The notes under the pieces are model-generated. The model worked only from the letters and a program-made list of their open reading frames with translations. It made no database searches and was not told where the DNA came from. This document shows positions 7,713-28,523 of a DNA stretch of 64,000 nt, piece after piece. A program made the position numbers and the translations under genes. Source of the DNA: Desulfobaccales bacterium (lineage in GTDB: Bacteria > Desulfobacterota > Desulfobaccia > Desulfobaccales > 0-14-0-80-60-11); contig JBAVAG010000025.1 of the NCBI GenBank assembly GCA_049585595.1, positions 17,632 to 81,631 on the forward strand. Direction: 5' to 3'. How positions within the stretch are numbered: position 1 is the first letter of the stretch; every line of letters starts with the position of its first letter.

Positions 7713-7727
7713 TCTGTGCCTGCACCT

Positions 7728-7845: not shown

Positions 7846-7939
7846 CCCCGCTCCCTGTTTGCCGTGCCCGCCGCGGGTAATTAACTCATATCGATAATTT
7901 TAGACGCTGCGAAGATCAGTGCTAGTTTTGGCAAGTTAG

Positions 7940-8035: not shown

Positions 8036-8759
8036 TTCTGATGATGGAGCAATAATTTAATATAAAAAATTTTATATCAATAATTCTTAGCAACAATTTT
8101 CTCTGTCCATATTAGAGCCTTAGCTCTTTTCTTGTCCTTCCCCGTTAGAATCTGTTTGACATAATAATCACAATCTTTTGGTTTGTCACTATTGCCGCAA
8201 TTCCTTATCCTGTATTTTAGGAGGGAAGCCTTATCTTGCATCTTGGGAGGGAAGCTATAAGCTCAAGATTTTCCTAAATTCTATCCAAGCCGCAGGTTGC
8301 ATGAAGAATAAGGATTATGGTTATCTTCCAGACCATTTTGCCATGGTCTCTCGCCGGGATTTCTTCAAGTTCTGTGATTTATCTAGGTCAAGTTCTGCAA
8401 ATTGGTTCGGGTATACGGGGTTTATTAGTTCTCCCGAGCCGCAGGGTTGAGCCGCGGAGGGCCGCGAGAATGGGCCCTCAGGTTCCAGATCCTAGTCAAA
8501 GTTTCGGGTTTATCAAGTTAACTAGATGTCACCCCTTTGCAACTATAAAAAGGAATATTACAAAAATGGGATTTTTAACAGAAATGCAACTTACCTTCTT
8601 GCGCGAACCTCATTCGGACCAAAAGGAGGACTCGTTTACTTTTACAATCTGTAAAAAATATTGACAATTCCCCCGCGGGAGGAACGGGGAGGCTGGGGGG
8701 ACTTGATTAAAGGATATTAATTTTCAACCAGTTGCCCCAGACAACCTTTGCCCGGGGTT

Positions 8760-8775
8760 TGGCACGGCCGTTGCT
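8760..8775 (+). promoter_or_regulatory. sigma54 (-24/-12) promoter
   Basis: TGGCACGGCCGTTGCT matches TGGCACG-N4-TTGCW exactly. It lies about 135 nt upstream of the receiver gene that heads the hdr-met cluster. Confidence 0.6.
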
Positions 8776-8910
8776 ATCCTAAAACCCGGGAGAAGGCGAT
8801 GCCAGTGATCGTCCTACGGAAGAGGGTTATTTTCGATCTAAAAAAGCCGGGGGATAACCTCCCTTACCTGGGTCTTTATCGTTCAAGACAGCATAGGAGC
8901 CTGAGGGCGA

Positions 8911-9306
8911 ATGGCCACAACGGAACGGGTTTTAGTGGTAGATGATGAACTGGATTTTGTGGAGACCATTGTCAAACGCCTGCAGGTCCGAAATATCAAG
9001 GCCAGCGGCGTCGACAGCGGCCCCAGAGCCCTGGAACTGCTTAATGAGCAGGACTTTGACGTGGTAATCCTGGACCTCAAGATGCCGGGGATGGACGGCA
9101 TCGAAACCCTGGTGGAAATGAAAAAAAAGAAGCCCCTGATGCCGGTGATCATGCTCACCGGCCATGCCACGGTGGCATCGGGGATCCAAGGCATGAAGTT
9201 GGGGGCCTTCGCTTACGTGATGAAGCCTGTGGCCCTGGACGAGCTGTTGGAGAAGATCCACAAGGCTCAAGAAAGAAAGCTGATCCAGGAAGGTCAGACT
9301 GAGTGA
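8911..9306 (+). CDS. stand-alone response-regulator receiver (CheY-like)
   Basis: VLVVDDE...DVVILDLKMPGMDG...MLTGH...K pattern. No output domain. Confidence 0.85.
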   Translation: MATTERVLVVDDELDFVETIVKRLQVRNIKASGVDSGPRALELLNEQDFDVVILDLKMPGMDGIETLVEMKKKKPLMPVIMLTGHATVASGIQGMKLGAFAYVMKPVALDELLEKIHKAQERKLIQEGQTE

Positions 9307-9404
9307 CCCTGCCTTTCTCAAAGGCGGGGCGGCCCTTGCTTCCGGGGTTGGTCCATCTTGGGGCCTAATCCCAAACAAATTACCGATTAACGGAAAAAAA
9401 GATA

Positions 9405-10298
9405 ATGAGCCCTGACATGCTAGCAAAACCGACGATCAGCAGCACAGAGAGGTTTTCTGTCAAGCGGGACCGCTCCCTGGCTTCTGAGGTTATTTGGCGG
9501 AGCGGCACGGATTTGAATAAATGTTTTCGCTGCGGCACGTGCGCCAGTGGGTGCCCCTTCATCCAGGCCATGGATTATCCTCCTTTCGGGGTCTTATCGC
9601 TATTGAAGTACGGTATGCGCCAGGAGGCCCTGAGCAGTGTGACGATCTGGATGTGCGTGGGCTGCCATACCTGCTCCAGCCAGTGTCCCATGACCATTGA
9701 CATGGCGGCGGTTATGGATACCCTGCGCCACATGGCCCTGGAGGAAGGGGTGGTCCTGGCTCAGCCGGAGCCCCAGGTGCCGGCGGTGCACCGGCATGGG
9801 TGTGGGCCACTGGAAGTCCTGGTGAGGAACGGCGGTCTGAAAAATATTGCCAAGAGAAAACTCAATGGCTTGAAGTTTGTGCCTAATTACGGGTGCACCT
9901 CCTTTCGGCCACCCCAGTACCATAAGCAGGGGAAATTCATTGAGGGCGAGATGGAACGAGTCCTGATCGCCTTGGGGGCCCAGCCCCTGACCAGGACTTA
10001 CACCAATCGCTGCTGTGGCTCTTTCCTGGCCGCCAGCAGGCCGGATATCGCCACTCCCATGGTCAATACGATCATTGAAGGCGCCCAGGCCGTAGGCGCG
10101 GATTGCATCATCACGGCCTGCGCCACCTGTCAGCTCAATCTGGAGGATCGTTGTACTCTGGAAAAGAAGCTGCCCGTGTTCCATTTTTCAGAAATCCTGG
10201 CTCTGGCCTTGGGGCAAGAGTACGAGGGGTGGCCCCAACACCACCTTGTAGATCCGCAACCAATACTGCAGAAACTGGGATTGGCCAAGGAGCAATAA
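9405..10298 (+). CDS. HdrC-like 2x[4Fe-4S] domain fused to a single HdrB-type CCG domain (paralog 1)
   Basis: CFRCGTCASGCP and CVGCHTCSSQCP ferredoxin motifs, then NYGCT...RCCGSF...ACATCQLNLE (one CCG domain). Confidence 0.75.
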   Translation: MSPDMLAKPTISSTERFSVKRDRSLASEVIWRSGTDLNKCFRCGTCASGCPFIQAMDYPPFGVLSLLKYGMRQEALSSVTIWMCVGCHTCSSQCPMTIDMAAVMDTLRHMALEEGVVLAQPEPQVPAVHRHGCGPLEVLVRNGGLKNIAKRKLNGLKFVPNYGCTSFRPPQYHKQGKFIEGEMERVLIALGAQPLTRTYTNRCCGSFLAASRPDIATPMVNTIIEGAQAVGADCIITACATCQLNLEDRCTLEKKLPVFHFSEILALALGQEYEGWPQHHLVDPQPILQKLGLAKEQ

Positions 10299-10343
10299 GT
10301 TTTTGGGGTAATTTAGTCCGGATAGCTAAACGGAGAAAGGACC

Positions 10344-11243
10344 ATGGCCCAACCCAACATTCCGGCAATACCCATAGACAGCAAGAAAGTAATTTTTCCT
10401 ACCAAGTGGGACCGCTCCCTGGCTACTGAGGTTATTCGACACAGCGGCACGGACCTGAATCAATGTTTTCGCTGCGGCACGTGCGCCAGTGGTTGCCCGT
10501 TCATCCGGGCAATGGATTATCCTCCTTTCGGGGTTTTAATGCTATTGCAGTACGGTTTACGCCAGGAGGCCCTGAGCTGTGCGACGATCTGGATGTGCGT
10601 GGGCTGCAATACCTGCTCCAGCGAGTGTCCCATGGCCATTGACATGGCAGCGGTGATGGATACCCTGCGCCACATGGCCCTGGAGGAAGGGGTGGTCCCG
10701 GCTCATCCGGAGCCCCCGGTGCCGGTGGTGCACCGGCATAGCTGTGGGCCATTGGAACTCCTGGTGAGGGATGTCCAGCGTCTGAAAGATACCGCCAAAA
10801 GGAACCTCAATGGCTTGAAATTTGTGCCTAATTACGGGTGCACTCTCTTTCGCCCACCCTGGCACCAGAGGCAGGGGAAATTCATCTGGGGCGAAATGGA
10901 ACGAGTCCTGAGCGCCTTGGGGGCCCAGCCCCTGCCCAGGGCTTACTCCAATCGCTGCTGTGGTTCTTTCCTGGCCGCCAGCAGGCCGGATATTGCCACT
11001 CCCATGGTCAATATGATCATTGAAGGCGCTCAGGCCGCAGGCGCGGATTGCATCATTACGGCCTGCGCCACCTGTCAGCTCAATCTGGAGAATCGTTGTA
11101 CGCTGGAGAAGAAGCTGCCCGTGTTCCATTTTTCAGAAATCCTGGCCCTGGCCTTGGGGCAAGAATATGAGGGATGGTTCAGCCGCCACCTGGTGGGTTC
11201 GGATCCGCAGCCGATGCTCCAGAAACTGGGATTGGGCGGCTAA
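10344..11243 (+). CDS. HdrC-like 2x[4Fe-4S] domain fused to a single HdrB-type CCG domain (paralog 2, tandem duplicate)
   Basis: Same architecture as 9405-10298 and about 85% identical to it. Confidence 0.75.
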   Translation: MAQPNIPAIPIDSKKVIFPTKWDRSLATEVIRHSGTDLNQCFRCGTCASGCPFIRAMDYPPFGVLMLLQYGLRQEALSCATIWMCVGCNTCSSECPMAIDMAAVMDTLRHMALEEGVVPAHPEPPVPVVHRHSCGPLELLVRDVQRLKDTAKRNLNGLKFVPNYGCTLFRPPWHQRQGKFIWGEMERVLSALGAQPLPRAYSNRCCGSFLAASRPDIATPMVNMIIEGAQAAGADCIITACATCQLNLENRCTLEKKLPVFHFSEILALALGQEYEGWFSRHLVGSDPQPMLQKLGLGG

Positions 11244-11297
11244 CAATTTTTGAGAGGGTCGCCAAATTAGCAACATTTACCAACCTTAGAGGCCTTT

Positions 11298-14200
11298 ATG
11301 AATGACAAATTACTTGGATCTGTAATGGTCGTCGGCGGAGGAATCGCCGGGATGCAGGCCGCCTTAGACATAGCCAATTCAGGCTATTACGTCCACTTGG
11401 TGGAAAAGGGGCCAGCAATCGGCGGGGTCATGGCGCAGCTCGACAAGACCTTCCCCACCAATGACTGTGCCATGTGAATTATCTCTCCCAAGCTGGTCGA
11501 GGTCGGCCGGCATATTAACATTGAGGTGCATCCTCTGACAGAGGTGCAGGAGATTACCGGGGAGCCGGGAAATTTTACAGTCACCTTAGAGAAGCAGCCC
11601 CGGTATGTCGATCTGTCCAAGTGTACGGGCTGCGGGGATTGCGCCAAAGCCTGTCCGGTAGTCATTAAAGATGAATTTAATCTGGGGCTGGCGGATGGTC
11701 GGGCTGCCTATCGCCTCTATCCACAAGCCATTCCCTCGGCCTTTTCCATCCTGAAGGCGTCCCGGGCCCCGTGTACCCGCACCTGTCCCGCCGGGATTAA
11801 TGTTCAGGGTTATGTGCAGCTTATCAAGATGAGGAAATATGAAGAGGCCCTGAAGCTCATTATGGAGCGGCTGCCTTTTCCTGGATCCCTGGGGCGCATT
11901 TGCCCCCATCCCTGCGAGGAAAAATGCCGGCGTCAGGAGATGGATGATCCGATAGCTATTTCCTGCCTGAAGCGGTTCGCGGCTGACCAAGTGGATGTAG
12001 GCCAAATCTCCTTCCCCAAAGCCGATCCCCGGAAAGAAAAGGTGGCCATCATCGGTGCCGGTCCGGCCGGGTTGACCTGCGCCTATCATCTGACCCTGCG
12101 GGGCTATCCGGCCACTGTCTTCGAGGCCCTGCCTAAGCCCGGGGGCATGCTGATGGTAGGGGTTCCGGAATATCGCTTACCCCGAGACGTCTTGGAAAAA
12201 GAGATTAACAACATCCTGAGCCTGGGGGTGGACCTGAAGACCAATATGGCCCTGGGGCGGGACTTTACCCTGAAGGAGCTGTTTGACCAGGGATACAAGG
12301 CAGTTTTCCTGGGCCTAGGTTGCCATAGAGGACTTCCCCTGGGGATTCCGGGAGAGGAAGCCGAGGGGGTCATGCAGGGGGTAGAGCTCCTGCGCCGGCA
12401 TAGTCTGGGACTACCCCTGACGGTGGGCAAACAGGTGGCGGTCATCGGCGGCGGTAACGTGGCTCTGGATGCCGCTTGCACCGCCCGGCGTTACGGCGCC
12501 AACGTCACCATTGTCTATCGCCGCTCCCGGGAGGAGATGCCCGCCCATGCCTGGGAGATCGACCAGGGATTGTGCGAAGGCGTGAGCATCCATTATCTGG
12601 TGGCGCCCTCTAAGGTCTTGTCCGAAAATGGGCGGGTCACCGGGCTGGTCGTTCAGAAAATGGAATTAGGACCGCCGGATGCCTCCGGACGGCGCCGCCC
12701 GGAACCCATCCCGGGATCAGAGTTCGAGCTGCCGTATGACATGGTGGTCCCGGCCATTGGCCAGGCCGCCGGGCTGGATCCTTTAAAGGATGATGGCATT
12801 AAATTCAGCAGTCGTGGAACCATTGAGGTGGACCCGTTGACTTACATGACCTCTCGGATGGGGGTCTTCGCCGCCGGGGATGTCCAATCCGGTCCATGGA
12901 TTGCCGTGGAGGCGATAGGCGGCGCCATTGAGGCGGCGGAGTCCATCCATCGTTATCTCCGGGATATGGATTGGGTTGCCGGTCGCATCAAAGGCGTTGA
13001 TGCCGAGGTCCGCTGGCGGGACCTTCCTAAAGACAGGTGGGGGCGGCCCCGAGAATCTATGGTCACCATCCCCCCGGAGGTCTCTTCCATCTGCTTTGCC
13101 GAGATTGCCCAGGGTTTTACCGAGGAACAGGCCCTGGAGGAAGCGGACCGCTGCATCAACTGCGGCATCTGTTCCGAATGTATGCAGTGTGTGGCAGCCT
13201 GCCAGGCCGGGGCCATCGACCACAGCCAACAGCGCCGGATAATGGACCTTAATGTGGGTTCTGTGGTGCTGGCGCCTGGCTTCCGAGCCTTTGATCCTAG
13301 CGATTATGGAAAATTTCAGTATGCCTCCCATCCCAATGTGGTGACCTCCCTGGAGTTTGAACGGATGCTTTCGGCCGGAGGGCCTTTTGCCGGGCATTTG
13401 ATCCGGCTCTCGGACCATAAAGAGCCCAAAAAGATCGCCTGGTTGCAATGCGTCGGCTCTCGCGACCTGAATCAATGTGAAAAAGGCTATTGTTCCGCGG
13501 TGTGCTGCATGTATGCCGTCAAACAAACAATGATCGCCAAAGAACACAGCAAGGAACCTCTGGATACCGCCATCTTCTTTATGGATATGCGCACTCCTGG
13601 TAAAGGGTTTGAGAAGTATTATTGGCGGGCCCAGGATGAGCTTGGGGTGCGGTTTGTCCGCTCCCGGGTACATAGTATCGAGCCGGTCCCCGGTACCGAT
13701 GATTTGACGGTGAAGTACTGGTCTGAAGACGGCTCTTTAAACACGGAATCCTTTGATATGGTGGTTCTTTCCATCGGGATGGTGATCCCCCCGGACACCG
13801 TGAAAATGGCTAAGAAGTTAGGGATAGAGCTGAGCCCCAATAACTTTGTGAGTGCAAGCTGCTTTGACCCGGTGGCCACTTCCCGGCCCGGGGTTTATAC
13901 CTGTGGAGCGTTTACCGGTCCCAAGGATATCCCTCAGTCGGTCATGGAGGCCAGCGCGGCCGCGTCGGCTTCAACCAGGGCTTTGGCTGCGGCCCGGGGC
14001 ACCTTGCAAAAGAAAAAGGAATTCCCGCCAGAGACGGAAGTGGCAGGGGAGCCAGCCAGAATTGGCGTGTTCGTTTGCAACTGCGGCATTAATATCGGCG
14101 GCATTGCCGACGTACCTGCCATCGTGGAATACGCCAGGACCATTCCCAATGTGGAATACGCGCAAGCCAACCTCTTCAGTTGCTCTCAAGACGCGCAGAA

Positions 14201-15737
14201 GCAGATGGCAGACGTAATCCAGGAACAAAAGCTGAACCGGGTGGTGGTGGCTGCCTGCAGCCCTTCCACTCACCAACCTATCTTCCAGGATATGCTGAGA
14301 AATGCGGCCTTGAACAAATATCTCTTTGAGATGGCCAATATCCGCAATCAGTGCACCTGGTGCCACCAAGCGGAGCCTGAGGCGGCCACGGAAAAATGCA
14401 AGCTCCTGGTCAATATGGCGGTGGCTAAGGCCCGGTTGCTCGAGCCCCTGGAATACATCACGGTGGACGTGACCCATAAGGCCTTGGTAATAGGCGGTGG
14501 CGTGGCGGGCATGGAAGCCAGCTTGGCCCTGGCCGATCAAGGTTATGATGTGCACCTGGTGGAGCGGCAGCCATTCCTGGGAGGTCAGGCTCTCAACCTC
14601 CATAGCACCTGGAAGGGAGAAAAAGTCCGTCCTTATGTCGAGGGTTTGATCGAAAAGGTAGCTAGGCATGACAAGATAGCCGCCCATTTAGGGTCCAACG
14701 TTACCGAGGTCCACGGGGTCGTTGGTAACTTTGCCTCGAAACTCTCCCCTGAGAATGAGGAGATCCATCACGGCATCGTCATTTTTGCCACCGGAGCTGA
14801 ACCTTATGAGCCAGAAGGCCAATTTCTGTATAAGCAAAATCCGAATGTCCTCCTTTCCCTGGACCTGGATCGGGAAATAGCCCAGGAAAGCGAGCGGCTC
14901 AAGAGCGCCGGAGCGGTAGCCTTCATCCAGTGTGTGGGCTCACGCATCCCGGAAAGGCCGTATTGCAGCAAGGTTTGCTGTTCCCATTCCGTGGAGAATG
15001 CTCTGAGGCTTAAAGAGATGAATCCGGAGAAGGATGTCTACATCATCTACCGGGATCTGCGGACCTATGGGGAAAGGGAAACCTTGTATGAAAGGGCTCG
15101 GGAAAAAGGGGTGCTTTTCTTCCGTTATGACCTGGAGGATCCACCCCTGGTGGAAGATGCCGACGGCAAAATAATCATCAAGGTCATGGATCGTGCCCTG
15201 AAGAGGCCGATAGAGCTAACCCCCGACCTCCTGGTTTTGGCTACCGCCATTGTGCCTTATGACAATACCCGCATTTCTGAACTTTACAAGGTTCCGCTTA
15301 GTTCCGAGGGCTTTTTCAATGAGGCGCACGCCAAGATCAGGCCGGTGGACTGTGCCACCGAGGGCATCTTTCTGGCAGGGCTCTGCCATTTCCCCAAACC
15401 CATAGATGAGTCCATTGCCCAGGCATTGGCGTCTGCCTCCAGGGCGTCCACTATATTGTCGAGGGATTCCCTGGAACTGGAATCCACCGTCTCCCGCCCC
15501 ATTGATGAGAACTGCGACGGCTGCGCCTTCTGTATAGACACCTGTCCGTTTAAGGCTATAACGCTGCTAGAATACATGAAAGAGGGAGGGGTGAAGAAGA
15601 CTGTAGAGATTAACGCGATCCTTTGCAAAGGTTGCGGCTCATGTATGGCCACCTGTCCCAAGCAGGGCATCAATATTGCTGGGTTTACGATGGCCCAGTT
15701 GGGTGCCCAGGTAGAGGCGGCGCTCGGATTAATCTAA
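11298..15737 (+). CDS. giant HdrA-like flavoprotein with inserted GltD/NfnB-type NAD(P)H module ('HdrL' type); in-frame TGA (probable selenocysteine) at 11475-11477
   Basis: ATG 11298 is in frame with track ORF 11526-15737. N-terminus MVVGGGIAGMQAAL..TFPTNDCAM-TGA-IISPKL, whereas paralog 17755-22236 has TFPTNDCSTCLISPKL (Cys). Contains GltD-like CPAGINVQGYV..VAIIGAGPAGL, HdrA blocks WLQCVGSRD..CCMYA and FIQCVGSR..CC, and a C-terminal 2x[4Fe-4S] domain. Confidence 0.8.
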
Positions 15738-15758
15738 GGCTAAAAAAGGAGTGCTAAG

Positions 15759-16178
15759 ATGAGCGACCAATATGAACCACTAGTGATCTCCTTCTGTTGC
15801 AACTGGTGTTCCTATGCCGGGGCAGATCTCGCAGGGGTCTCCAGGATTCAGTATCCGCCGAACGCGGTTATCATCCGGGTGATGTGCTCCGGGATGGTCC
15901 ATCCCAATCTGGTGATCGACGCCTTTACCAAAGGAGCTGACGGCGTCCTGGTATGCGGCTGACACCTGGGCGAATGTCATTACCTGGATGGTAATAAAAA
16001 AGCGAAAGACAGGGCAGAAGCTTTAGAGTTAATGTTGGAGGACTTTGGTTTGGAGCCGGAGCGCTTCCGCCTGGAGTGGATTTCTTCCTCGGAGGCCCAG
16101 AAATTCGCGGACGTGATGCGGGATATGATCGAGACGGTGCGGGCCTTGGGCCCCAGCTCTTATAGCACCAGGGCTTGA
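15759..16178 (+). CDS. mvhD: MvhD-type [2Fe-2S] subunit; in-frame TGA (probable selenocysteine) at 15960-15962
   Basis: Track ORF stops at ...[12 protein letters not shown]. The same frame continues [21 protein letters not shown]...[11 protein letters not shown]...LGP to TGA 16176-16178. The TGA occupies the Cys of the MvhD G-C-x3-C-H motif. Confidence 0.75.
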
Positions 16179-16270
16179 CTTGGCGCAGGCAGTTTAAGCC
16201 TGCGGCCACAATCTTTTTTTTATAATGGGAAATAGACCAATCGAGATCTCTTAAACAGGAGTTAATCCTG

Positions 16271-16852
16271 ATGGAAATCAACCTGAACCAACCGCTGGTT
16301 CCTTCTTTTTCCCTACAGGAGCGCCTGGCCGGGGCAGGGGCCACGCCGGTGTCTTCCTGTTATCAGTGTAAGAAGTGCTCCGCGGGCTGTCCTCTGACCT
16401 TTGCCATGGATCTGCTCCCGGACCGGGTCATGCGCCTGGCCATCCTGGGTCAGACGGAAGCGCTCTTGGGCTGCCGGACCATTTGGGTCTGCGCCGCCTG
16501 CGTCACTTGCAGCACCCGCTGTCCCAACGGCATTGACATCGCCGGGGTCATGGACCGGCTCAAGCAAGAGGCGCTCCGGCAGGGCAAAGCCATCGATCAA
16601 CCGGAGGTGGCGGCCTTCCATCGCTTCTTCCTGGACAGCGTCCGCCGGGCTGGCGGCCGCCTACCGGAAATGGCGCTGATGCGCCGCTTTACCCTGTTTA
16701 AACTTCGGCGGCGGCCCCAAATCGGAGAGCTTTGGGAAAATGCCAAACTTGGCTGGGGCCTCTTCAAACGCGGCCGGCTACGTCTATCAGGCCCCCCGGC
16801 CCTCAAGGGGCGGGATGAGATCAAAAAAATCTTTAAGAACACGGGGGCTTAA
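16271..16852 (+). CDS. hdrC: heterodisulfide reductase subunit C-like protein
   Basis: CYQCKKCSAGCP and CAACVTCSTRCP motifs, size about 190 aa. Confidence 0.8.
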   Translation: MEINLNQPLVPSFSLQERLAGAGATPVSSCYQCKKCSAGCPLTFAMDLLPDRVMRLAILGQTEALLGCRTIWVCAACVTCSTRCPNGIDIAGVMDRLKQEALRQGKAIDQPEVAAFHRFFLDSVRRAGGRLPEMALMRRFTLFKLRRRPQIGELWENAKLGWGLFKRGRLRLSGPPALKGRDEIKKIFKNTGA

Positions 16853-16859
16853 GGCACTC

Positions 16860-17696: not shown

Positions 17697-17754
17697 TGAG
17701 CAGGCGTGGTCTTCCCCTACCGAACCACAACGCCCATCAAAATGGAAAAAACTT

Positions 17755-20700: not shown

Positions 20701-22236
20701 GAAAACCTCAACCGGGTGGTGGTGGCCTCCTGCAGCCCCCGGACCCACGAACCCCTGTTCCAGGAGAACCTGCGGAAGGCCGGGTTGAACAAGTACCTCT
20801 TCGAAATGACCAACATCCGGGACCAGGACTCCTGGGTGCACCAGGGAACCCCGGAGTTGGCTACTGAGAAGGCCAAGGAACTGGTGCGCATGTCGGTGGC
20901 CCAGGCCCCCATCCTGGAGCCTTTGGACGACCTGCTCTTCCCGGTTAGCCAGCAGGCCCTGGTGGTGGGCGGCGGCCTGGCCGGCCTGACGGCCGCCCTG
21001 ACCATTGCCGACGGCGGCTACCAGGTCTATCTGGCGGAGTTGGAGGACCGGCTGGGCGGCAGCCTGGCCCGGCGGATGCGCCGCACCTTGGAGGGCCATG
21101 AAGTCCAGCCTTATCTCCAGGAACTGGTGGCCCGGGTGGAAAACCACCCCCGCATTGACTGGTTGCCCAACACCCAGGTCCTAAACGTGAAGGGCCATAT
21201 CGGCAAATTCCAGGGCACCCTGGAATCGGGCGAGGGCCGCCGGGAGGTGGAATTCGGCGCGGTGGTGATTGCCACCGGCGGTGAGGAATATAAACCGGAA
21301 GAATACCTTTACGGCCAGGACCCCCGAGTCCTTACCCAATTGGAAGTGGAGAACCTGCTGGCGGAATCCCCCGAAACCCTAGGCGCCGCTCCCAGGGTGG
21401 TGATGATCCAATGCGTCGGCTCCCGGGAGCCGGAACATCAGTATTGCAGCCGCACTTGCTGCGGCGAGGCCGTCAAGAACGCCATTACCATCAAGGAGCT
21501 CAATCCAGCCGCCCAGGTCTTCATCCTCTACCGGGATATCCGGACCTATGGCCTCAAGGAGATTTTCTACAAGAAGGCCCGGGAGCTGGGGGTGCAGTTC
21601 GTGCGCTTCGAGGTGGAGCAGAAACCGGAAGTGCAGGCCACGGGCCAGGGCCTGGAAATATCGGTCTTCGACCAGTCGTTGCAAGCGAACCTGGCGCTGG
21701 CCGCCGATTACCTGGTGCTCTCGACGGCCATCCGGCCCCATCCGATGAGCCGGAAAATCGCCCGGGTCTTCAAGCTGCCTTTTGACGCCGACGGCTTCTT
21801 CATGGAAGCCCACCTGAAACTGCGGCCCCTGGATTTCGCCGCCAGCGGCATCTTCCTCTGCGGGCTGGCTCACTGTCCCAAGTTTCTGGAGGAAAGCCTG
21901 GCCCAGGCCAAAGGCGCGGCGGCCCGGGCCCTGGGGGTGCTGGCCCACGCGGAGATGTACGTGGCCGGCACGGTGGCCCAGGTAGACCCGCTAAAATGCG
22001 TCGCCTGCCTGACCTGCTTGCGCACCTGTCCCTTCGGGGTCCCCAGGATGGATGAAGGCGAGGGGGTGGTGGTCATCGACCCCGCCTCCTGTCACGGCTG
22101 CGGCAGCTGCGCCAGCGCCTGCCCCCGGAAGGCCATTGCGGTGAGTCACTACCTGGACAACCAATTTAATGCCAAGATTTGCGCCTGCTGCACGCCCTTG
22201 CCCAAGGTCGACTTAAGCGAAAGGATTGGAGCCTGA
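17755..22236 (+). CDS. giant HdrA-like flavoprotein with GltD/NfnB-type module ('HdrL' type), Cys form
   Basis: Same domain order as 11298-15737. Cys sits at the position of the Sec codon in the paralog. Confidence 0.85.
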   Translation: MTTDKTKTGAISVIGGGIAGMQAALDAANAGFKVYLVEKDISIGGVMAQLDKTFPTNDCSTCLISPKLIEVARHPDIEIITQSEIAGVEGEAGRFTITLHQEPRYIDPAKCNACGACAEACPVHLPSTFDEGLGVRPAAYRHFPQAIPATFAIMKASRAPCVRACPANLSAQGYVQLIKEHKFPEALAIIMDRLPLPGTIGRICPHPCEVDCRRQEVDEPIAICNLKRFVADTVDWSTLPVPEIPQRSEKVAILGAGPSGLSCAYHLARKGIQTVIFEAAPEAGGWLRYGIPEYRLPRNVLQQEVDYIQRLGVQINYNSPIGKGRTINDLLTRDGFNAVFIGVGAQDSLRIPVPGHEAQGVLWGVEYLKDSAMGKKLDLSGKKVLVIGGGNVAMDAARTAVRQKGKVTLICLESPEEMPASPWEVEEARHEGVEIVTRWGVKQVLEKGGKVTGIELKAVERVFDEQGRFAPTYFEDQTRPETADVIIMAIGQKTDLRFLTEADKIQLTPRGLIQADPVTKATSWEGVFAGGDVETGPYIAIAAVAAGREAAESIDRYLQGKDSQAGRDLPLRPLPKEQGNWAPIRADIEKKPRAMIQTPPVEEWIKSFKEINLGYSEAEAVAEADRCINCGICSECMQCVAACQAGAINHQDQPRTRQLEVGAMILAPGFRPFDAGEKPEYGYGRYPNVVTSLQFERLLSATGPYEGHVLRPSDGAPPRKVAWIQCVGSRDASCGREYCSYVCCMYATKQAIIAREHDHNVEPTIFYIDLRAQGKGFDRYAERAEKQHGVRYVRSMVSRVAQDPRTKNLELSFVDDSGQVQSEVFDMVVLSVGLNPHPAAREMAARCGIDTDRYGFAVSPPLEQPSTSRPGIFACGVFQSPKDIPETVGQASGAAGAAASMLAEARGTLLTKEEYPPEKDISGEAPRIGVFICHCGINIAGVTDVAAVTEFARTLPDVVYADDYTFTCSTDSLDRMRQVIETENLNRVVVASCSPRTHEPLFQENLRKAGLNKYLFEMTNIRDQDSWVHQGTPELATEKAKELVRMSVAQAPILEPLDDLLFPVSQQALVVGGGLAGLTAALTIADGGYQVYLAELEDRLGGSLARRMRRTLEGHEVQPYLQELVARVENHPRIDWLPNTQVLNVKGHIGKFQGTLESGEGRREVEFGAVVIATGGEEYKPEEYLYGQDPRVLTQLEVENLLAESPETLGAAPRVVMIQCVGSREPEHQYCSRTCCGEAVKNAITIKELNPAAQVFILYRDIRTYGLKEIFYKKARELGVQFVRFEVEQKPEVQATGQGLEISVFDQSLQANLALAADYLVLSTAIRPHPMSRKIARVFKLPFDADGFFMEAHLKLRPLDFAASGIFLCGLAHCPKFLEESLAQAKGAAARALGVLAHAEMYVAGTVAQVDPLKCVACLTCLRTCPFGVPRMDEGEGVVVIDPASCHGCGSCASACPRKAIAVSHYLDNQFNAKICACCTPLPKVDLSERIGA

Positions 22237-22239
22237 GAG

Positions 22240-22680
22240 ATGGAATACAATCCGAGGATACTGGCCTTTGTTTGCACCTACTGCACCTACACGGCCGCAG
22301 ATATGGCGGGGTCGGCCCGGATGCAGTACCCCTACAACGTGCGCATCGTCAAGTTCCTGTGCACCGGCCGGATAGACATCATCCACATTTTGAAGGCCTT
22401 TGAGGCTGGCGCCGACGCCATCTTCGTGGGCGGCTGAGAGTTCGGAAACTGTCATTTCCTGGAAGGAAATCTCAGGGCCCGGGAACGAGTGGAATATGCG
22501 CAACAATTACTGGAAGAGACCGGTCTGGGGGCGGACCGCCTGGCCATGTATGAGATCGGTGCCTCTGAGGCCCCCAAGTGGGTGGCGGCGGTGAACGAAA
22601 TGACGGAAAAAGCTAAAGCTCTGGGGCCCAATCCTTTGAACCCGAGTTGGGGAGTAAAGGCAGTGGTCCCGAAAAACTAG
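22240..22680 (+). CDS. mvhD: MvhD-type [2Fe-2S] subunit; in-frame TGA (probable selenocysteine) at 22435-22437
   Basis: ...GADAIFVGG-TGA-EFGNCHFLEGNLRARERVEYAQQLL... joins track ORFs 22240-22437 and 22489-22680 in one frame. Same position as in the 15759-16178 gene. Confidence 0.75.
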
Positions 22681-22696
22681 AACTGGCGGTGCAAAG

Positions 22697-23377
22697 ATGA
22701 TCATCGCGGAACGGAAGCCCTTTGCGGAAATCAAGACGGCAGTGGCGCCCTTTGAGAAGGTCCTCTTTGTCGGGTGCGGCACCTGTGTGGCGGTTTGCCT
22801 GGCGGGCGGGGAAAAAGAGGTGGGGCTGCTGGCCTCCCAACTGAAGCTCGCCCGGGGACAGGAAGGCAAGCAGCCGAAGATCGGGGAGATCACGGTGGAG
22901 CGCCAGTGCGACCTGGAATTCATCCGGCCCCTGAGCGAGGCGGTCGCCGAGTATGACGCAGTCATTTCCACTGCCTGCGGCGCCGGGGTGCAGTTCCTGG
23001 CGGCCCTGCCCGAAATGAAACCGGTCTTCCCGGCCCTCAACACCACCTTCATCGGGGTCAACGAGGACGCAGGGTTTTATACCGAGCGCTGCCGGGCCTG
23101 CCACCAGTGTTACCTGGGAATCACCGGGGGGATTTGCCCGATGACCATGTGTCCCAAGGGATTGCTCAACGGTCCCTGCGGCGGCAACATCCGGGGCAAG
23201 TGTGAGGTCAATCCCGACCGGGACTGCGCCTGGTGCGAGATTTATGCCAGGCTGGAACGGCAAGGCCGGTTGGGGCAGATCGAACCGATTCTGCCGCTGC
23301 ACCCCTACGGCCGCAGCGTCACCCCGGGCACTGTGATCCACCCGGGTTATAAGAGGAGGTATGGCCTCCATGAGTAA
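22697..23377 (+). CDS. metV: MetV (methylene-THF reductase-associated Cys-rich small subunit)
   Basis: CRACHQCYLGITGGICPMTMCPKGLLNGPCGG motif. Lies directly upstream of metF and overlaps it. Confidence 0.8.
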   Translation: MIIAERKPFAEIKTAVAPFEKVLFVGCGTCVAVCLAGGEKEVGLLASQLKLARGQEGKQPKIGEITVERQCDLEFIRPLSEAVAEYDAVISTACGAGVQFLAALPEMKPVFPALNTTFIGVNEDAGFYTERCRACHQCYLGITGGICPMTMCPKGLLNGPCGGNIRGKCEVNPDRDCAWCEIYARLERQGRLGQIEPILPLHPYGRSVTPGTVIHPGYKRRYGLHE

Positions 23378-24254
23378 GCTCAAGGAAGCTTTGGAAGGTG
23401 GCCAGTTCCCCATCGTCATGGAAATTAAACCTCCTAAGGGCATTGACCTGGAGGGAATGCTGACTCCGGTGAAATCGCTCAACGGGAAGGTGACCGCCTT
23501 TGGGATTCCGGACAATGAAGATGCCAAGATGAAACTCTCGCCCCTGGCAGCGGCCAGGCTGGTCCAAGAGGCCGGAGGTGAACCCTTGCTCTTCATGACC
23601 TGCCGGGATCGCAACCGCCTGGCCCTGGAGAGCGATTTGCTGGGCGCCGGCGCCCTGGGCATAGAAAATATCTTGGCGTTGAGCGGCGATTTCGTCAGCC
23701 TGGGTGATCATCCCGACACCAAGCCGGTCTATGACGCCGACTCGGTACAGCTCCTGCAAATCGCCCGGGGGTTGATGACAGGTCATGATAGCGCCGGTCT
23801 TTCCCTGAAGGGAAACCCCCAATTCTATCTGGGCGCGGTCCTCATCCCGGAGGCCGACCCGGTAGCTCCCCAGCTCCTCAAGGTTAAGAAAAAGCTGGAG
23901 GCAGGAGTCGAATTTTTTATCACGGCACCCATGTTCACCGTGGAGAAGTTCCGCCAGTTCAGGCAATCATTGGGTTCCCCGGCTGTAAAATTTATGGCCT
24001 GCCTCAAGGTCCCCGAGGCCTCGGAAGTGGAGGCGGCTTCCTCGGGCCAGCACCGGAAGGTCTATTCCCTGCCCCCCGATGTAGTCCAGGAACTGGCCGG
24101 GACTGATCCCGAAGAAGTCTTGCAGAAGGGCGCCGCTCTGACCGGCCGTCTGCTCAAAGAGATTAGAGAGCAAAAGCTCGCCGACGGCGTCTATGTGAAA
24201 GCCCGTGGCCGGGGCGACCTGATGGCCCAGATTTTGAAGACCGCGGGTGCCTAA
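23361..24254 (+). CDS. metF: 5,10-methylenetetrahydrofolate reductase MetF
   Basis: TIM-barrel MTHFR pattern: VMEIKPPKG...FGIPDN...FMTCRDRNR...ILALSGD. Confidence 0.85.
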   Translation: MASMSKLKEALEGGQFPIVMEIKPPKGIDLEGMLTPVKSLNGKVTAFGIPDNEDAKMKLSPLAAARLVQEAGGEPLLFMTCRDRNRLALESDLLGAGALGIENILALSGDFVSLGDHPDTKPVYDADSVQLLQIARGLMTGHDSAGLSLKGNPQFYLGAVLIPEADPVAPQLLKVKKKLEAGVEFFITAPMFTVEKFRQFRQSLGSPAVKFMACLKVPEASEVEAASSGQHRKVYSLPPDVVQELAGTDPEEVLQKGAALTGRLLKEIREQKLADGVYVKARGRGDLMAQILKTAGA

Positions 24255-24272
24255 GATAGTGGGGAAACTCTC

Positions 24273-25520
24273 ATGAGAGACGATAAAGTCAATCCGGTGG
24301 TAGTCCTGGGCGGCGGCATTGCTGGGATTACCGCAGCCCTGGAGTTAAGCCGGGCCGGATTGGAGGCGGTCCTGGTGGAGAAGAGCCCCTTTTTCGGCGG
24401 GCGGGCCGCCAGCTTCGGCTGCAAAGCCACCGAGGTCTGCCAGCAATGTGGCGCCTGCCGGGTCGAACAAGGTTTGCGAGACCTGTTTTCGGCGCCGGGC
24501 CTCACCCTTTATGCCCACACGGAGCTGCTGGAAAGCCGGTCTGTTAACGGTTTGCTGCACCTGACCCTGAAGTCGCAGCCCCAGGTAATCGACTCCCACC
24601 GCTGCATCGATTGCGGCCTTTGCCTGGAGGAGTGCCCGGCGCCGGGAGGCGTGATAAGTGCGGCCTCCGCCGAGAACCATCCCCGTTTTGCGGTGAATCC
24701 GGCCGCCTGCCTCTATTTTCAAGACGGCTCCTGCCGCCGCTGCCAGGACCTCTGCCCCACCCAGGCCATCGATCTGGCCAGGTCCGAGACCGTGAGGCAA
24801 CTGGAGACCCCGAGCCTTATCTTGGCTACCGGCTATCAACCTGGGCAGCCTCCCTCCCGGGTGGCTTATACCAATTACTGCTGGCCCAACATCATCACCG
24901 GCCGGGAATTGGAGGAATTGATGCGGCAGGGCGGGCCTCTGCTCAGGCCCGGCGACGACCGGCCGGTGCGGCGTCTGGCCTTCATCCAGTGCGCGGGCAG
25001 CCGGGACCGGGAGCATTCGTATTGCTCCCGGGTCTGCTGCGCCTATGGGTTGCGCCTGGCTCGGCTGATCCACCATCGTTGGCCGGAGTGCCAGGTGACC
25101 ACTTTTTACATGGATCTGCAAAACATCGGCCCGGACCCCGAGAATTTCGAGGCTGCCGCCAGGCGGGAATTAGAATTGATCCGGGCCCTCCCCGGGGACG
25201 TGGTCGCCACGGACGATGGGGCCTTGAAATTGCCCTTTTTGGATGAAGCGAGCAACCGGGTGCGGTTTCGGGTGGTGGACCTCTTGGTCCTGGCAGTGGG
25301 TATCGCTCCTGGGCCAGACAACGTCAAACTGGCGGAAATGCTGCACCTGCAACTGAATCCGGACGGCTTCCTTAAGGACGGTCTGGATGGCACCCGGGCC
25401 GAAGCTCCAGGGATTTTCCTGGCCGGGACCGCCACCGGTCCCCAAAGCATCCTGGAATGCATCGCCCAGGGGACCCGGGCGGTCCGGCAGGTGCGTCAAT
25501 ATCTGGAGGCAAGGACGTGA
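24273..25520 (+). CDS. short HdrA-like FAD/FeS oxidoreductase
   Basis: VVLGGGIAGITAAL FAD fold, CIDCGLCLEECP and CRRCQDLCP clusters, FIQCAGSRD..YCSRVCC HdrA signature. Confidence 0.75.
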   Translation: MRDDKVNPVVVLGGGIAGITAALELSRAGLEAVLVEKSPFFGGRAASFGCKATEVCQQCGACRVEQGLRDLFSAPGLTLYAHTELLESRSVNGLLHLTLKSQPQVIDSHRCIDCGLCLEECPAPGGVISAASAENHPRFAVNPAACLYFQDGSCRRCQDLCPTQAIDLARSETVRQLETPSLILATGYQPGQPPSRVAYTNYCWPNIITGRELEELMRQGGPLLRPGDDRPVRRLAFIQCAGSRDREHSYCSRVCCAYGLRLARLIHHRWPECQVTTFYMDLQNIGPDPENFEAAARRELELIRALPGDVVATDDGALKLPFLDEASNRVRFRVVDLLVLAVGIAPGPDNVKLAEMLHLQLNPDGFLKDGLDGTRAEAPGIFLAGTATGPQSILECIAQGTRAVRQVRQYLEART

Positions 25521-28447
25521 ATATTGCCCATTCCCTGAAACCGGTGAATGTCTTGTTAATGCATGGCCCGGAGCTGGTCGCGGCGGGGCTCGACCCCCAG
25601 GACTTTTGTCAGGCAGTGGCGAGCTTACCGAATTGTCGGGTGTTGCCCGTGGATCCGGCCTGGCCGGCTGCAGAGCAAGAGGAGCAAGTGCGCAGCTTCC
25701 TCAGCCAGGACCAGGAGGTCAATCCGGTTATCCTGGCGGCCAAAGATCCAGAGCATCGGGGGGCCGGGGTAGCCCGCCTGTTACGGGAAGAGCTGGGATT
25801 GAACCCGGAATGCCTCATGGCGGTGGACCTGACCGCAGCCCTGGAACTCCCGGACCAAAGCGCCCGGACCGCGAAAGTGCTGGAAATGATTCGCCTGGCG
25901 GCCTCGCAAGCCAGCATGACCAGGCCCATTATCCCCCAGGCAATCCCGGTCAGCCGTCAAGTTCTGGTTTGGGGCGATTCCATTGCCGGTTTGAAAGCTG
26001 CCTGGGATTTGGCAGAGGTGGGCTATCCGATTATCCTGGCGAACCCCAAGCCGGCTCTCAACCCCTTACCCTTGGAGTATACCGAGGACCCGGCTGAGCT
26101 TAACTCTCTGGCCCGGCAGGTCCAGGAACACCACCTGATCAGGACGGTTTCTGCCGCCCGGGTCAAAGATTTCGGCGGGGTCGCCGGCAATTTCACCCTG
26201 CGTCTGGAGACGTCGCAAGGACGCCTAACCGATAAGGTGGGCGCGGTGGTTTTGGCCCCTGAGCTGGAGATGCAAGAAGCCCCCCACCGTTACCACGCTC
26301 CCGAACATCCCTCGGTGATCTCCCAGACCCAGCTGGAAATGCTGCTGACTGGCGTTTTCGAAGAGGATCTGCCAGAAACTGTGGCCATCCTGGTGGGTCT
26401 GGCCGGGGAGAGCCATCCCCTGGCCCTGGGGAGGGCTCTGAGGGCGGCATCCCGCCTGCTGGCGGCCGGCAGCCGGGTCTACCTGTTGGTGGGCAACGCC
26501 AAGCTGGCGGACCCGGGCCTGCAGCGGGCCCTGCAGGCCAACCAGGAGGCCGGTTTGCAGCTCATCAAGCTGAAAGAGTGCCCTACTGTTAGCGTCATGG
26601 ACGGGGGTCTGGGGGTGGCCTTCTTTGAGCCGGCCATCCGCGAGAATCTGGTTCTGCCAGTTGACCTGGTAGTTTATGATGAACAATACCAAGCCGCCGG
26701 GGGAAACGCCGGGGTGGCCGAACTTCTCCGCCTGCCCTTAGGAGCCGGGGGTTTTCTCCAGTCCGGCAATGTCCACCACACCCCGGTGGCCACCAGCCGA
26801 CGGGGCATTTATGTCATCGGACCAGGCCGGGGGATCATGGACCCGGAAGGGACCGACACCGATATAAGTGTCGCCGTTAATGAGATTCAGAGCCTCCTGG
26901 CCCAGGGCGAAGCCGTCGCGCCCCAGGGACGGGCCTCAGTGGACCGGGGCCGGTGTGTCATCTGCCTGACCTGCTACCGGCTCTGCCCTCACGGTGCCAT
27001 CACCTGGGACAATCGGGCCATCATCAATGAACTGGCCTGCCAGGGCTGCGGCATTTGCGCCAGCCAGTGCCCCAACGACGCCATTCAGGTCTGGAATTTC
27101 ACCGATGACCAAGTGGCGACGCAATTGGCGGCCTTCGATCCCCAATTGAGTCCCCGGATTGTGGCCTTCATGTGCCGCAACTCCGCCTGGGAGGCCTATC
27201 AAACCGCGGTGAAGCTCCATCATGCCTCTCTGCCGCTGGGCTTCACTCCCATCAAAGTGCCTTGTGCCGGCAAGGTTGACCCTGATTATTTGCTGCAGAC
27301 CTTTGCCTCCGGGGCCGACGGCGTGCTGGTCCTCTCCTGTCCCCAGGACAACTGCAAATCCACCCATGGTAACCTGTACGCCGAGTGGGGGGTGGAGCAG
27401 GTCCAGGGGCTCCTGGCTGAAGCCGGCATTGATCCCGGCCGGCTCCTGTTCCGTTCCCTGGCCGCCAACGCCCCCCGAGACTTGATCGACGCGGTGGATC
27501 AGGTGATGGCCAACCTCAGCCTCTCGGCCGCGGAAACGGACGAAGATTATCCTTTCTGGCTGACTACCGGGGCCAGCTTTACCCAGCATTTCAGCGGCGC
27601 CAAGAGTCAGCGTCAGCCCGTTCTCCCTCAGGAAAGCCGGGAGGTCTGCATCGAAATGCATTCCCAGGATGCCCGGGACTTGGGAATTCAGTCGGGAGAA
27701 CCAATCAAGGTTAACAGCCGCCAGGGCGCGATCACGGCCACCGCCCGGTTAACTGATCGGCTCAAGCCGGGCGCGGCCTTTATGCCGAGGCACTTCCTGG
27801 GGGACGTAGTTAACTGCCTGGTCAATTCGCCTCTGGACCCCATCGCCAGGATGCCAGCATATCATGGGTGTGCAGTCAATTTAGAAAAGTTGGTCGAGCA
27901 ACTTGAGGAAGTCTTTGGCATTAAGGTGCCGCCTTCCCGCTACCTCCACCGGGGTCATACCTGGGTGGCCTTGGAGAATGGCGGCAGGGTGCGCCTGGGC
28001 ATGGATGACTTTTCCCAAAAGGTCCTGGGTCCCGGCGATGAAATCAGGCTGCCGCTAATCGGGGAGGAAATTCGCCATGACCAGGCGGCGCTGGCCCTAT
28101 TCCGCCAGGGGAAAAAGGCCGCGGTCCTGGCGCCTCTGGACGGTATCATCGAAGCGGTGAATCCCAAGGTCCTGGCAAGACCGGGGCTGGCCCATGACGA
28201 CCCTTACGGCGAAGGCTGGCTAATGGTCGTCGCCGCCACCAATCTGAAGTCGGACCTGAAAAACCTGGTCTCCGGCGAGGGCAAGGGGCCTTGGCTAGAA
28301 GAGGAGTCCCTCAGGCTCCTGGCCATGCTGGAACCCTCGGTGGGCGCCGCCCTCCAGTCCGACCGGACGATCATCGATGACGTCTACGGTCAGTACCCCG
28401 AATTAGGCTGGGAGCGCCTGGCAAAGGAGTTCCTCCGGTCCGCCTGA
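25517..28447 (+). CDS. 976-aa mosaic protein: degenerate HdrA-like region, 2x[4Fe-4S], MvhD-like domain, molybdopterin-dinucleotide-binding (MopB C-terminal) barrel and GcvH-like domain
   Basis: GTG 25517 overlaps the upstream stop (GTGA); the start is uncertain. Motifs seen: CVICLTCYRLCP and CQGCGICASQCP; RIVAFMCRNSAW..GADGVLVLSCPQDNCKSTHGN; YPFWLTTG...DARDLGIQSGEPIKVNSRQG...PGAAFMP; HTWVALENGGRVRLGMDDF...DDPYGEGWL. Confidence 0.7.
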   Translation: MNIAHSLKPVNVLLMHGPELVAAGLDPQDFCQAVASLPNCRVLPVDPAWPAAEQEEQVRSFLSQDQEVNPVILAAKDPEHRGAGVARLLREELGLNPECLMAVDLTAALELPDQSARTAKVLEMIRLAASQASMTRPIIPQAIPVSRQVLVWGDSIAGLKAAWDLAEVGYPIILANPKPALNPLPLEYTEDPAELNSLARQVQEHHLIRTVSAARVKDFGGVAGNFTLRLETSQGRLTDKVGAVVLAPELEMQEAPHRYHAPEHPSVISQTQLEMLLTGVFEEDLPETVAILVGLAGESHPLALGRALRAASRLLAAGSRVYLLVGNAKLADPGLQRALQANQEAGLQLIKLKECPTVSVMDGGLGVAFFEPAIRENLVLPVDLVVYDEQYQAAGGNAGVAELLRLPLGAGGFLQSGNVHHTPVATSRRGIYVIGPGRGIMDPEGTDTDISVAVNEIQSLLAQGEAVAPQGRASVDRGRCVICLTCYRLCPHGAITWDNRAIINELACQGCGICASQCPNDAIQVWNFTDDQVATQLAAFDPQLSPRIVAFMCRNSAWEAYQTAVKLHHASLPLGFTPIKVPCAGKVDPDYLLQTFASGADGVLVLSCPQDNCKSTHGNLYAEWGVEQVQGLLAEAGIDPGRLLFRSLAANAPRDLIDAVDQVMANLSLSAAETDEDYPFWLTTGASFTQHFSGAKSQRQPVLPQESREVCIEMHSQDARDLGIQSGEPIKVNSRQGAITATARLTDRLKPGAAFMPRHFLGDVVNCLVNSPLDPIARMPAYHGCAVNLEKLVEQLEEVFGIKVPPSRYLHRGHTWVALENGGRVRLGMDDFSQKVLGPGDEIRLPLIGEEIRHDQAALALFRQGKKAAVLAPLDGIIEAVNPKVLARPGLAHDDPYGEGWLMVVAATNLKSDLKNLVSGEGKGPWLEEESLRLLAMLEPSVGAALQSDRTIIDDVYGQYPELGWERLAKEFLRSA

Positions 28448-28523
28448 TAGCGGGTCCGCCAGAGGTTTATGACGGTTTAGGCAGGCTAAAGCCTGCGGCT
28501 ACCAAGGGCATATAGGCAGACGG

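Follow-up and report, generated by a model that had tools for sequence, protein, structure and literature searches.

To our knowledge, it is unsettled how bacteria that run the Wood–Ljungdahl pathway in reverse pay for the oxidation of methyl-tetrahydrofolate (methyl-THF). An array of ~20 kb in a Desulfobaccales bacterium (GenBank assembly GCA_049585595.1, contig JBAVAG010000025.1), in which the methylene-THF reductase genes metV and metF stand among genes for heterodisulfide reductase (Hdr)-like proteins and their MvhD adaptors, raises the question of whether all of these parts form one enzyme system under one promoter or are separate modules brought together. The window analyzed is a stretch of 64,000 nt, in whose numbering positions are given unless another locus is named, and the cluster was read at 8760–28718, with all genes on the + strand and with short gaps or overlaps between them. 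Genes were identified from a listing of open reading frames (ORFs) and their translations, followed by Pfam and NCBIfam scans, and 14 window proteins were compared by tblastn with 134 related loci (L numbers below).

We consider it probable, at roughly 0.6, that two Hdr-type flavin-based electron-bifurcation modules with separate ancestries make up the array, lying head to tail and meeting at a repetitive extragenic palindromic (REP)-like palindrome. The downstream module B (16271–28447) appears to be the Desulfobaccales form of the Moorella-type MetFV-HdrCBA-MvhD methylene-THF reductase, in a version built on HdrL, and the upstream module A is a second, paralogous HdrL-MvhD selenoprotein unit (8911–16178, together with a gene for a 64-aa protein at 28524–28718). 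The array is not a new kind of system. It was apparently built by module shuffling and represents a variant of a known, widespread enzyme system; the locus is real, its genes had been correctly described, and we class it as a variant of the Hdr-linked MetFV reductase made from portable HdrL modules.

Module B has the order HdrC-HdrB-HdrL2-MvhD2-MetV-MetF-short HdrA-mosaic, in which metV and metF are overlapping adjacent genes (22697–24254; PF12225, PF02219), gene callers placing the MetF start at 23370 and public records holding a 294-aa product. The Moorella MetFV-HdrABC-MvhD complex, whose HdrA has two FAD, uses 2 NADH and methylene-H4F, its second acceptor being unidentified (PMC5861303, summarizing Mock et al. 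2014). In Moorella thermoacetica hdrC, hdrB, an HdrA-type gene, mvhD, metV, and metF are adjacent and in the same order as here, with NAD(P)H as the presumed hydride carrier and methylene-THF as the high-potential partner. The present locus differs from that of Moorella in its Desulfobaccales host, in which the reaction is probably reversed, in its selenoprotein MvhD, in the short HdrA and mosaic protein after metF, and in the second HdrL module upstream. A first-pass annotation of this DNA, made without database searches, had taken the MetFV-HdrCBA-MvhD locus as its reference, and the metVF, hdrCB, and mvhD genes are indeed present, but the ordinary HdrA is replaced by the 1493-aa HdrL2.

The module B block recurs in at least 12 loci from the Desulfobaccales, Syntrophobacterales, and Desulfarculaceae. 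HdrL, MvhD, and MetV are adjacent in 53 of 133 related loci (18 of the 53 with HdrC-HdrB directly upstream), and a metagenome-assembled genome (MAG) of Desulforapulum autotrophicum (L035) carries HdrC-HdrB-HdrL-MvhD-MetV-MetF. Most relatives have module B without module A. Desulfobacca acetoxidans MetF has been counted among the putative bifurcating Met enzymes (Poudel et al. 2018), and, judging from the related Desulfobacca MAG loci L022 and L052, this species probably carries module B. Murali et al. (2023) noted that metF adjoins HdrABC in syntrophic sulfate reducers, in which HdrABC also occurs in tandem copies of unknown function.

The segment map of HdrL2 was obtained by comparison with solved HdrA (8rvu_a; Table 1), and it shows that HdrL comprises two HdrA-like halves in one chain, a built-in pseudo-dimer, with an NAD(P)H-FAD module of ~480 aa in the first half at the site of the inserted ferredoxin domain. 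Residues 157–640 match StnA (8oh5_C, 2e-97), NfnA (9n5u_A, 6e-94), and NfnB (4ylf_B, 3e-73) of the StnABC, NfnABC(Bfu), and NfnAB enzymes, including the Fer4_20 cluster domain and both dinucleotide folds; unlike in those enzymes, in which the module is a separate subunit, it is here inserted inside an HdrA-type protein. HdrL1 has the same layout, Fer4_20, Pyr_redox_2, and GltD-type models match both HdrL proteins, and both keep the N-terminal and C-terminal ferredoxin-type domains of bifurcating HdrA. The first-pass annotation held that the electron donors of the complex could not be predicted, a fair statement that is now narrowed, the insert being closest to the NADP(H)-binding StnA, NfnA, and NfnB. 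The locus and its ~50 relatives show that Desulfobacterota usually hard-wire the NAD(P)H module, of NfnB type, into an HdrA made of two fused halves, giving a concrete and testable electron path.

All segments of HdrA in the methanogen MvhADG-HdrABC complex (5ODC, 8RVU) are recognizable in HdrL, and the MvhD adaptor, the two-CCG HdrB, and selenocysteine at the conserved HdrA Cys are likewise shared. In contrast to the methanogen complex, there is no hydrogenase in this locus (its relative L061 has MvhG/MvhA), a fused two-half chain replaces the HdrA dimer, and bacteria have no CoM-S-S-CoB. HdrL was described in 2009 by Strittmatter et al. as a large HdrA/glutamate-synthase-type fusion in Desulfobacterium (Desulforapulum) autotrophicum HRM2 (PMC2702500), and HdrABC/HdrL were abundant in Syntrophobacter fumaroxidans grown with sulfate and detected only with sulfate, a link to DsrC being proposed (PMC5947623). 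The published HdrL work gives no biochemical function and ties HdrL mainly to sulfite/DsrC reduction (PMC2702500, PMC5947623). In these organisms, as here, the large fusion is followed by mvhD and selenocysteine forms of both exist, but the present array holds two paralogous HdrL units, one of them with HdrC/single-CCG fusions. We found no paper dissecting the replacement of HdrA by HdrL or the two-module arrangement, although key papers were outside the reach of our search.

HdrL1 and HdrL2 are only 47% identical and are therefore old paralogs; HdrL2 orthologs across Desulfobaccales MAGs, which are its closest relatives in the genome collection, are 60–89% identical to it. A recent duplication of the HdrL-MvhD module was rejected on this ground, and the term "duplicated" in the first-pass annotation is misleading, as the two units differ in partner subunits and in distribution as well as in sequence. 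The only recent tandem duplication is that of the two HdrC/CCG fusions, which are 80% identical to each other. In other respects the gene list of that annotation was borne out by the ORFs, Pfam, and NCBIfam: every gene is present at its place on the + strand, there are one canonical HdrC-HdrB pair and two tandem HdrC/half-HdrB fusions, a third, short HdrA and the mosaic protein lie downstream of metF (24273–28447), and each HdrL is followed by its own MvhD after a gap of 21 nt (HdrL1-MvhD1) or 3 nt (HdrL2-MvhD2).

Table 1. Coordinates of the genes and other features of the array, with the HdrL2 segment map (amino acid residues)
Feature	Position	Strand	Remarks
Sigma54-type -24/-12 motif TGGCACGgccgTTGCT	8760-8775	+	Exact consensus, 136 nt upstream of receiver gene
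Receiver-only response regulator (REC)	8911-9306	+	131 aa; PF00072 only
HdrC-like/CCG fusion, copy 1	9405-10298	+	297 aa; Fer4_8 and one CCG
HdrC-like/CCG fusion, copy 2	10344-11243	+	299 aa; Fer4_8 and one CCG
HdrL1	11298-15737	+	1479 aa, selenoprotein; TGA 11475-11477 in FPTNDCAM-U-IISPKL
MvhD1	15759-16178	+	139 aa, selenoprotein; TGA 15960-15962, G-U-HLGECHY; FlpD E = 9e-54
REP-like palindrome GCAGGC-N7-GCCTGC with T8 run	16185-16203	.	Module A/module B junction
HdrC	16271-16852	+	193 aa; Fer4 dicluster families, HdrC/QmoC-type models
HdrB	16860-17696	+	278 aa; CCG in two stretches; TIGR03288 matched over 2-288
HdrL2	17755-22236	+	1493 aa; two HdrA-like halves and inserted GltD/NfnB/StnA-like NAD(P)H-FAD module (~157-640)
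MvhD2	22240-22680	+	146 aa, selenoprotein; TGA 22435-22437, G-U-EFGNCHF; FlpD E = 2e-47
MetV	22697-23377	+	226 aa; PF12225 E = 3e-34
MetF (methylene-THF reductase)	23361-24254	+	294-297 aa; PF02219 E = 5e-20
Short HdrA-like flavoprotein	24273-25520	+	415 aa; HdrA2 model positions 141-560; Pfam FAD and Fer4
Mosaic protein	25517-28447	+	976 aa; HdrA-like part, 2x[4Fe-4S], FlpD/MvhD, Molydop_binding, GCV_H, conserved tail
REP-like palindrome GCAGGCTAAAGCCTGC	28481-28496	.	Directly upstream of small gene
Conserved small protein	28524-28718	+	64 aa; normally directly after mvhD of HdrL1-type modules
Further REP-like copies	48253-48268, 57948-57963		
HdrL2 segment	Residues 12-153		HdrA 155-296
HdrL2 segment	Residues 157-640		StnA (8oh5_C), related oxidoreductase (9bov_A), Bfu-type NfnA (9n5u_A), NfnB (4ylf_B); E 1e-117 to 1e-73
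HdrL2 segment	Residues 629-849		HdrA 297-517
HdrL2 segment	Residues 918-1086		HdrA 4-172 (N-terminal domain)
HdrL2 segment	Residues 1340-1479		HdrA 516-653 (C-terminal ferredoxin domain)

Module A begins with the receiver, whose best NCBIfam matches are the receivers of AtoC, GlrR, NtrC, and ZraR (NtrC-family type) and which is 90–94% conserved in L001, L056, and L059. Copy 1 of the fusions matches the HdrC model at residues 38–122 and positions 131–290 of the HdrB model at residues 145–291; the single CCG domain of the fusions corresponds to the C-terminal half of HdrB, and the copy 1 translation displays the CCG motif C...CCG...CxxC. Both copies are present in L001, L056, L057, and L059, and it is possible that the two HdrC/single-CCG proteins pair and so imitate the two-CCG site of HdrB.

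Module A adjoins module B only in the window, L001, L056, L058, and L059. Elsewhere it keeps other company: in L057 and L072 a MetF paralog (MetF2) comes after module A (91% identity), in L061 an HdrL1-type module precedes the small gene and MvhG, MvhA, and a HycI protease (6475–10021), that is, an Mvh-type [NiFe] hydrogenase, and in L064 such a module is followed by the small gene, a receiver homolog (57% identical), and a protein with two DsrC domains (5691–6916). HdrL-MvhD thus appears to behave as a portable plug-in module, both paralog types being repeatedly, though not always, linked to MetF, and it seems to have been connected in different loci to MetF, to a hydrogenase, or to a DsrC-like protein, the junctions being marked by REP-like palindromes.

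Two conserved, unstudied parts are added to the known system: a GcvH-like domain, together with a tail that is likewise conserved, and the protein of 64 aa. Homologs of the 64-aa protein follow HdrL1-MvhD1 in L060–65, L082, L124, and L132–134, and the 3′ limit of the cluster, set at 28447 in the first-pass annotation, should be shifted to 28718, since this conserved gene belongs to the system. The protein has 33 database homologs, all unnamed, and an identical protein occurs in Desulfobaccales MAGs. Its predicted fold is a confident beta-beta-alpha-beta-beta model (predicted local distance difference test score, pLDDT, 87.5), for which a structure search returned no significant or informative match, and the protein matched no family.

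The GcvH-like domain and its conserved tail of ~55 aa form residues ~810–976 of the mosaic protein (27950–28447), and this module family is tied to HdrL/MetVF loci. The module also exists as a stand-alone Cys-rich protein (36% identity) heading the L079 cluster; two extra stand-alone copies were seen upstream of the L021 cluster (L021 6498–7879, - strand). In the sHdr-LbpA systems of sulfur oxidizers a GcvH-like domain is tied genetically to an Hdr-like system. Here, by contrast, a role as lipoate carrier is unlikely, the lipoyl-lysine position not being conserved (GKK in the window; GEK, GGT, GAG, NER, GNQ, and SAK in orthologs), and the idea that the domain supplies a lipoyl disulfide to HdrB was rejected for the same reason. 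The mosaic gene has a GTG start that overlaps the stop of the short hdrA, and its product is called as 976 aa. The short HdrA is an HdrA core with the inserted ferredoxin and without the N-terminal and C-terminal domains, and it is kept after MetF in module B loci. Together with the HdrA-MvhD-Molydop_binding-GcvH-like mosaic it is a lineage-specific accessory of module B; a QmoAB-like reading of the pair was set aside, HdrA2 models fitting best. After the mosaic gene, L001, the closest MAG, carries a second MetF paralog, which is longer (362 aa), and a double [2Fe-2S] protein resembling NuoE (L001 21344–24149), at a site where the window has the small gene and kdp genes.

The junctions bear on how the two modules came together. 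The REP-like palindrome GCAGGC-N(4-7)-GCCTGC has four copies in the window against 0.16 expected, of which at least those at 16185 and 28481 are intergenic, and the hairpin at 16185–16203 has a folding energy of -20.1 kcal/mol (z = -2.5). Nucleotide colinearity of L001 with the window covers 8838–28465 only and ends just before the second palindrome (28481–28496). L057 is colinear over 8849–16205 and then diverges, position 16205 being just past the 3′ end of the first palindrome. An extended motif, GCAGGCTAAAGCCTGCGGCTACCA, is kept directly upstream of the small ORF in other loci, and in L061 (5638–6179) inverted palindrome copies flank an IS200-type Y1 transposase (PF01797, Y1_Tnp) between mvhD and the small gene. 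The association with a Y1 transposase was seen once, in L061, and no such gene was seen in the window. Based on the breakpoints, we infer an ancestral arrangement in which mvhD1 was followed by a REP element and the small gene, with module B today flanked by a REP-like element on either side.

Several points weigh against a composite of independent modules. The case for REP-mediated insertion is drawn from the breakpoints only, and the 92-nt gap between the modules resembles the sequence upstream of hdrC in relatives lacking module A little, except in the region of the ribosome-binding site, so module B may here depend on read-through from module A. Modules A and B are both found repeatedly near MetF/MetVF in unrelated lineages (L024, L028, and L044; in tandem in L079, L081, and L131), and module A may therefore belong with MetVF as a genuine partner, as opposed to standing beside it independently. 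The Dehalococcoidia loci L024 and L028 have the order HdrA-MvhD-MetV-MetF-HdrC/CCG fusion-HdrL-MvhD, and L079, L081, and L131 have HdrL-MvhD-HdrL-MvhD-MetV-MetF. Finally, Wood–Ljungdahl and sulfate-reduction genes, which would fix the direction of the reaction, are not in the window.

For module B, the gene content suggests a path in which NAD(P)(H) would bind at the inserted NfnB-like module of HdrL2 and the HdrA flavin would be the bifurcating or confurcating site, splitting or merging electron pairs. One branch would run through MvhD2 and MetV to the flavin of MetF (methylene/methyl-THF, -200 mV), and the other through the C-terminal ferredoxin domain to ferredoxin (Fd). The predicted net reaction, which would be reversible, is 2 NAD(P)H + methylene-THF + Fd(ox) <-> 2 NAD(P)+ + methyl-THF + Fd(red). 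Cultured Desulfobaccales oxidize acetate through the acetyl-CoA pathway, and the reaction would therefore run backwards: methyl-THF + Fd(red) + 2 NAD(P)+ -> methylene-THF + Fd(ox) + 2 NAD(P)H. In such an acetate oxidizer, reduced ferredoxin would help to pull the endergonic oxidation of methyl-THF, overcoming the gap between -200 and -320 mV. Gene content, domain maps, selenocysteine signatures, synteny, and breakpoints were observed directly, and catalysis, direction, complex composition, and transcription units are inferences.

The first-pass annotation had treated the array as fused into one sigma54-driven supercluster. An operon of this kind, with the whole 20 kb transcribed from one sigma54 promoter through a distant enhancer-binding protein and all Hdr units joined in a single super-complex serving MetVF, is in our judgment unlikely. 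It draws support from the genes themselves, which lie on one strand with short gaps or overlaps and begin with a receiver of the NtrC-family type, and from the motif, which, as had been noted, precedes the array together with that receiver-only regulator. The pattern TGGCACGGCCGTTGCT has one exact match in the window, intergenic and correctly oriented, and 0 of 100 window shuffles gave an exact match. Further support comes from 12 loci that hold two HdrL-MvhD pairs together with MetV, and from the distant, non-orthologous HdrL loci L079–81, which, like L130, carry sigma54 motifs. In L079 (4067–9239) a PAS kinase, an NtrC-type activator (REC-Sigma54_activat-HTH_8), an M54 peptidase, a sigma54 motif, and the Cys-rich GcvH-like gene head an HdrL-MvhD-HdrL-MvhD-MetV-MetF cluster, the GcvH-like gene sitting, at least in this locus, between the motif and the HdrL genes. 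L080 and L081 likewise pair a PAS kinase and an NtrC-type activator with the motif, L080 ending after the first HdrL-MvhD pair.

Against one operon, the motif is specific to the window and lies outside the block (8838–28465) shared with the closest relatives. L001, L057, and L059 have no correctly spaced GG-N10-GC at this position and carry a TGCTATAAT-type sequence instead, and the upstream neighbor of the closest relatives differs from that of the window. As the first-pass annotation had observed for enhancer-binding proteins, a scan of the window ORFs (most of those of at least 150 aa outside the cluster) detected no Sigma54_activat protein. Between mvhD1 and hdrC stand the stable REP hairpin, the T8 run, and a TATAAT sequence, and L001 has a hairpin at the same place with a T-rich run immediately after it. 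Module A, moreover, is missing from most relatives, which have only module B, and it is linked to different partners in other loci. Sigma54 control of the array is plausible, but a single sigma54 transcript is unproven. As a separate observation, an imperfect 16-nt inverted repeat (8745–8760/8781–8796, 81% complementary) would place the sigma54 motif in the loop of a possible hairpin.

A second alternative, which we hold to be distinctly improbable, retains the gene assignments of the composite reading and denies bifurcation: HdrL2 would feed NAD(P)H electrons via MvhD and MetV to MetF, or the reverse, or the HdrB/CCG subunits would link methyl-THF oxidation to a protein disulfide (DsrC) and so to sulfate respiration. 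No second acceptor has ever been established for the Moorella enzyme (PMC5861303), and the sulfate-restricted detection of HdrABC/HdrL in S. fumaroxidans, with its proposed DsrC link (PMC5947623), fits such a role, as do the tandem DsrC-like gene after the HdrL1-type module in L064 and the three separate CCG-type subunits encoded in the cluster. However, the terminal ferredoxin-type domains known from bifurcating HdrA are retained in both HdrL proteins, the window has no DsrC gene within the cluster or beside it, and oxidation of methyl-THF by NAD(P)+ alone would be endergonic at standard potentials of -200 versus -320 mV. A DsrC-type disulfide is the main alternative for the function of HdrBC and the single-CCG fusions (PMC5947623; L064).

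It is also conceivable, though we think it very doubtful, that MetVF, HdrCB, the two HdrL-MvhD units, and the HdrC/single-CCG proteins as a pair form one mega-complex. Using two fused NfnB-like sites, this complex would merge the electrons of methyl-THF with those of reduced ferredoxin on NAD(P)+; it would also deliver electrons to a protein disulfide, and it would enable methyl-THF oxidation in acetate-oxidizing sulfate reducers. If true, this would reveal the second redox partner that has long been missing for Hdr-linked MetFV enzymes.

Three of the genes reach their full length only when an in-frame TGA codon, located at 11475 in HdrL1, 15960 in MvhD1, and 22435 in MvhD2, is read as selenocysteine, which is well supported. 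These codons were not mentioned in the first-pass annotation, whose HdrL proteins of 1480–1490 aa with a GltD/NfnB-like module do contain the insert, the size of HdrL1 holding only if its TGA is selenocysteine. The HdrL1 codon aligns with a Cys of the HdrL2 motif FPTNDCxxC, and those of the MvhD genes with a Cys of the conserved motif G-C-x-x-G-x-C-H-Y/F. Among the related loci, the corresponding columns hold Cys in 126 homologs and a stop in 41 (HdrL N terminus), 99 and 49 (MvhD1), and 99 and 48 (MvhD2). The reading frame is intact downstream of all three codons, and hairpins with GG in the loop begin 17–19 nt past each UGA, with folding energies that are not unusual compared with shuffles; that of HdrL1, 17 nt past the UGA, resembles a selenocysteine insertion sequence (SECIS) and has an AGGU loop. 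Selenocysteine forms of HdrL and MvhD have been reported in Desulfobacterium autotrophicum (PMC2702500), and HdrL1, MvhD1, and MvhD2 very probably represent genuine selenoprotein genes.

The arrangement from HdrL2 to the mosaic, small gene, and kdp is reproduced in at least eight independent assemblies and has close relatives in Desulfobaccales MAGs, and an assembly artefact can therefore be dismissed. The possibility of a chimeric assembly or of decaying pseudogenes, which might be suspected from the three in-frame stops, the splitting of MvhD2 by some gene callers (a single 146-aa product in NCBI records), and the fact that L057 and L059 share one flank and differ downstream, is effectively refuted by the Cys-or-stop columns at all three TGA codons, the hairpins and intact frames that follow them, and the same gene order in L001, L056, L059, and the independent assemblies.

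The flanks of the cluster are unrelated to it: on the upstream side lie genes for a CLC channel, isocitrate dehydrogenase, and a Na/sulfate symporter, and on the downstream side lie kdp genes. An Rfam search of 7400–29600 gave no match, and a tRNA gene search of the window found none. The ~1.4 kb upstream of the array (7400–8838) is non-coding and holds a palindromic stretch (7432–7553) and several dispersed repeats, some of which also occur in other Desulfobaccales loci; within the window, 7602–7698 resembles 48322–48418, 7718–7840 resembles 34127–34249, and 7966–8034 resembles 29116–29184. There are two kdpABC operons, at 29572–34026 (+) and 40942–46031 (-), the second of which is preceded by a sigma54-like motif with one mismatch (46504–46519, -) and a PAS histidine kinase gene (46657–48123, -).

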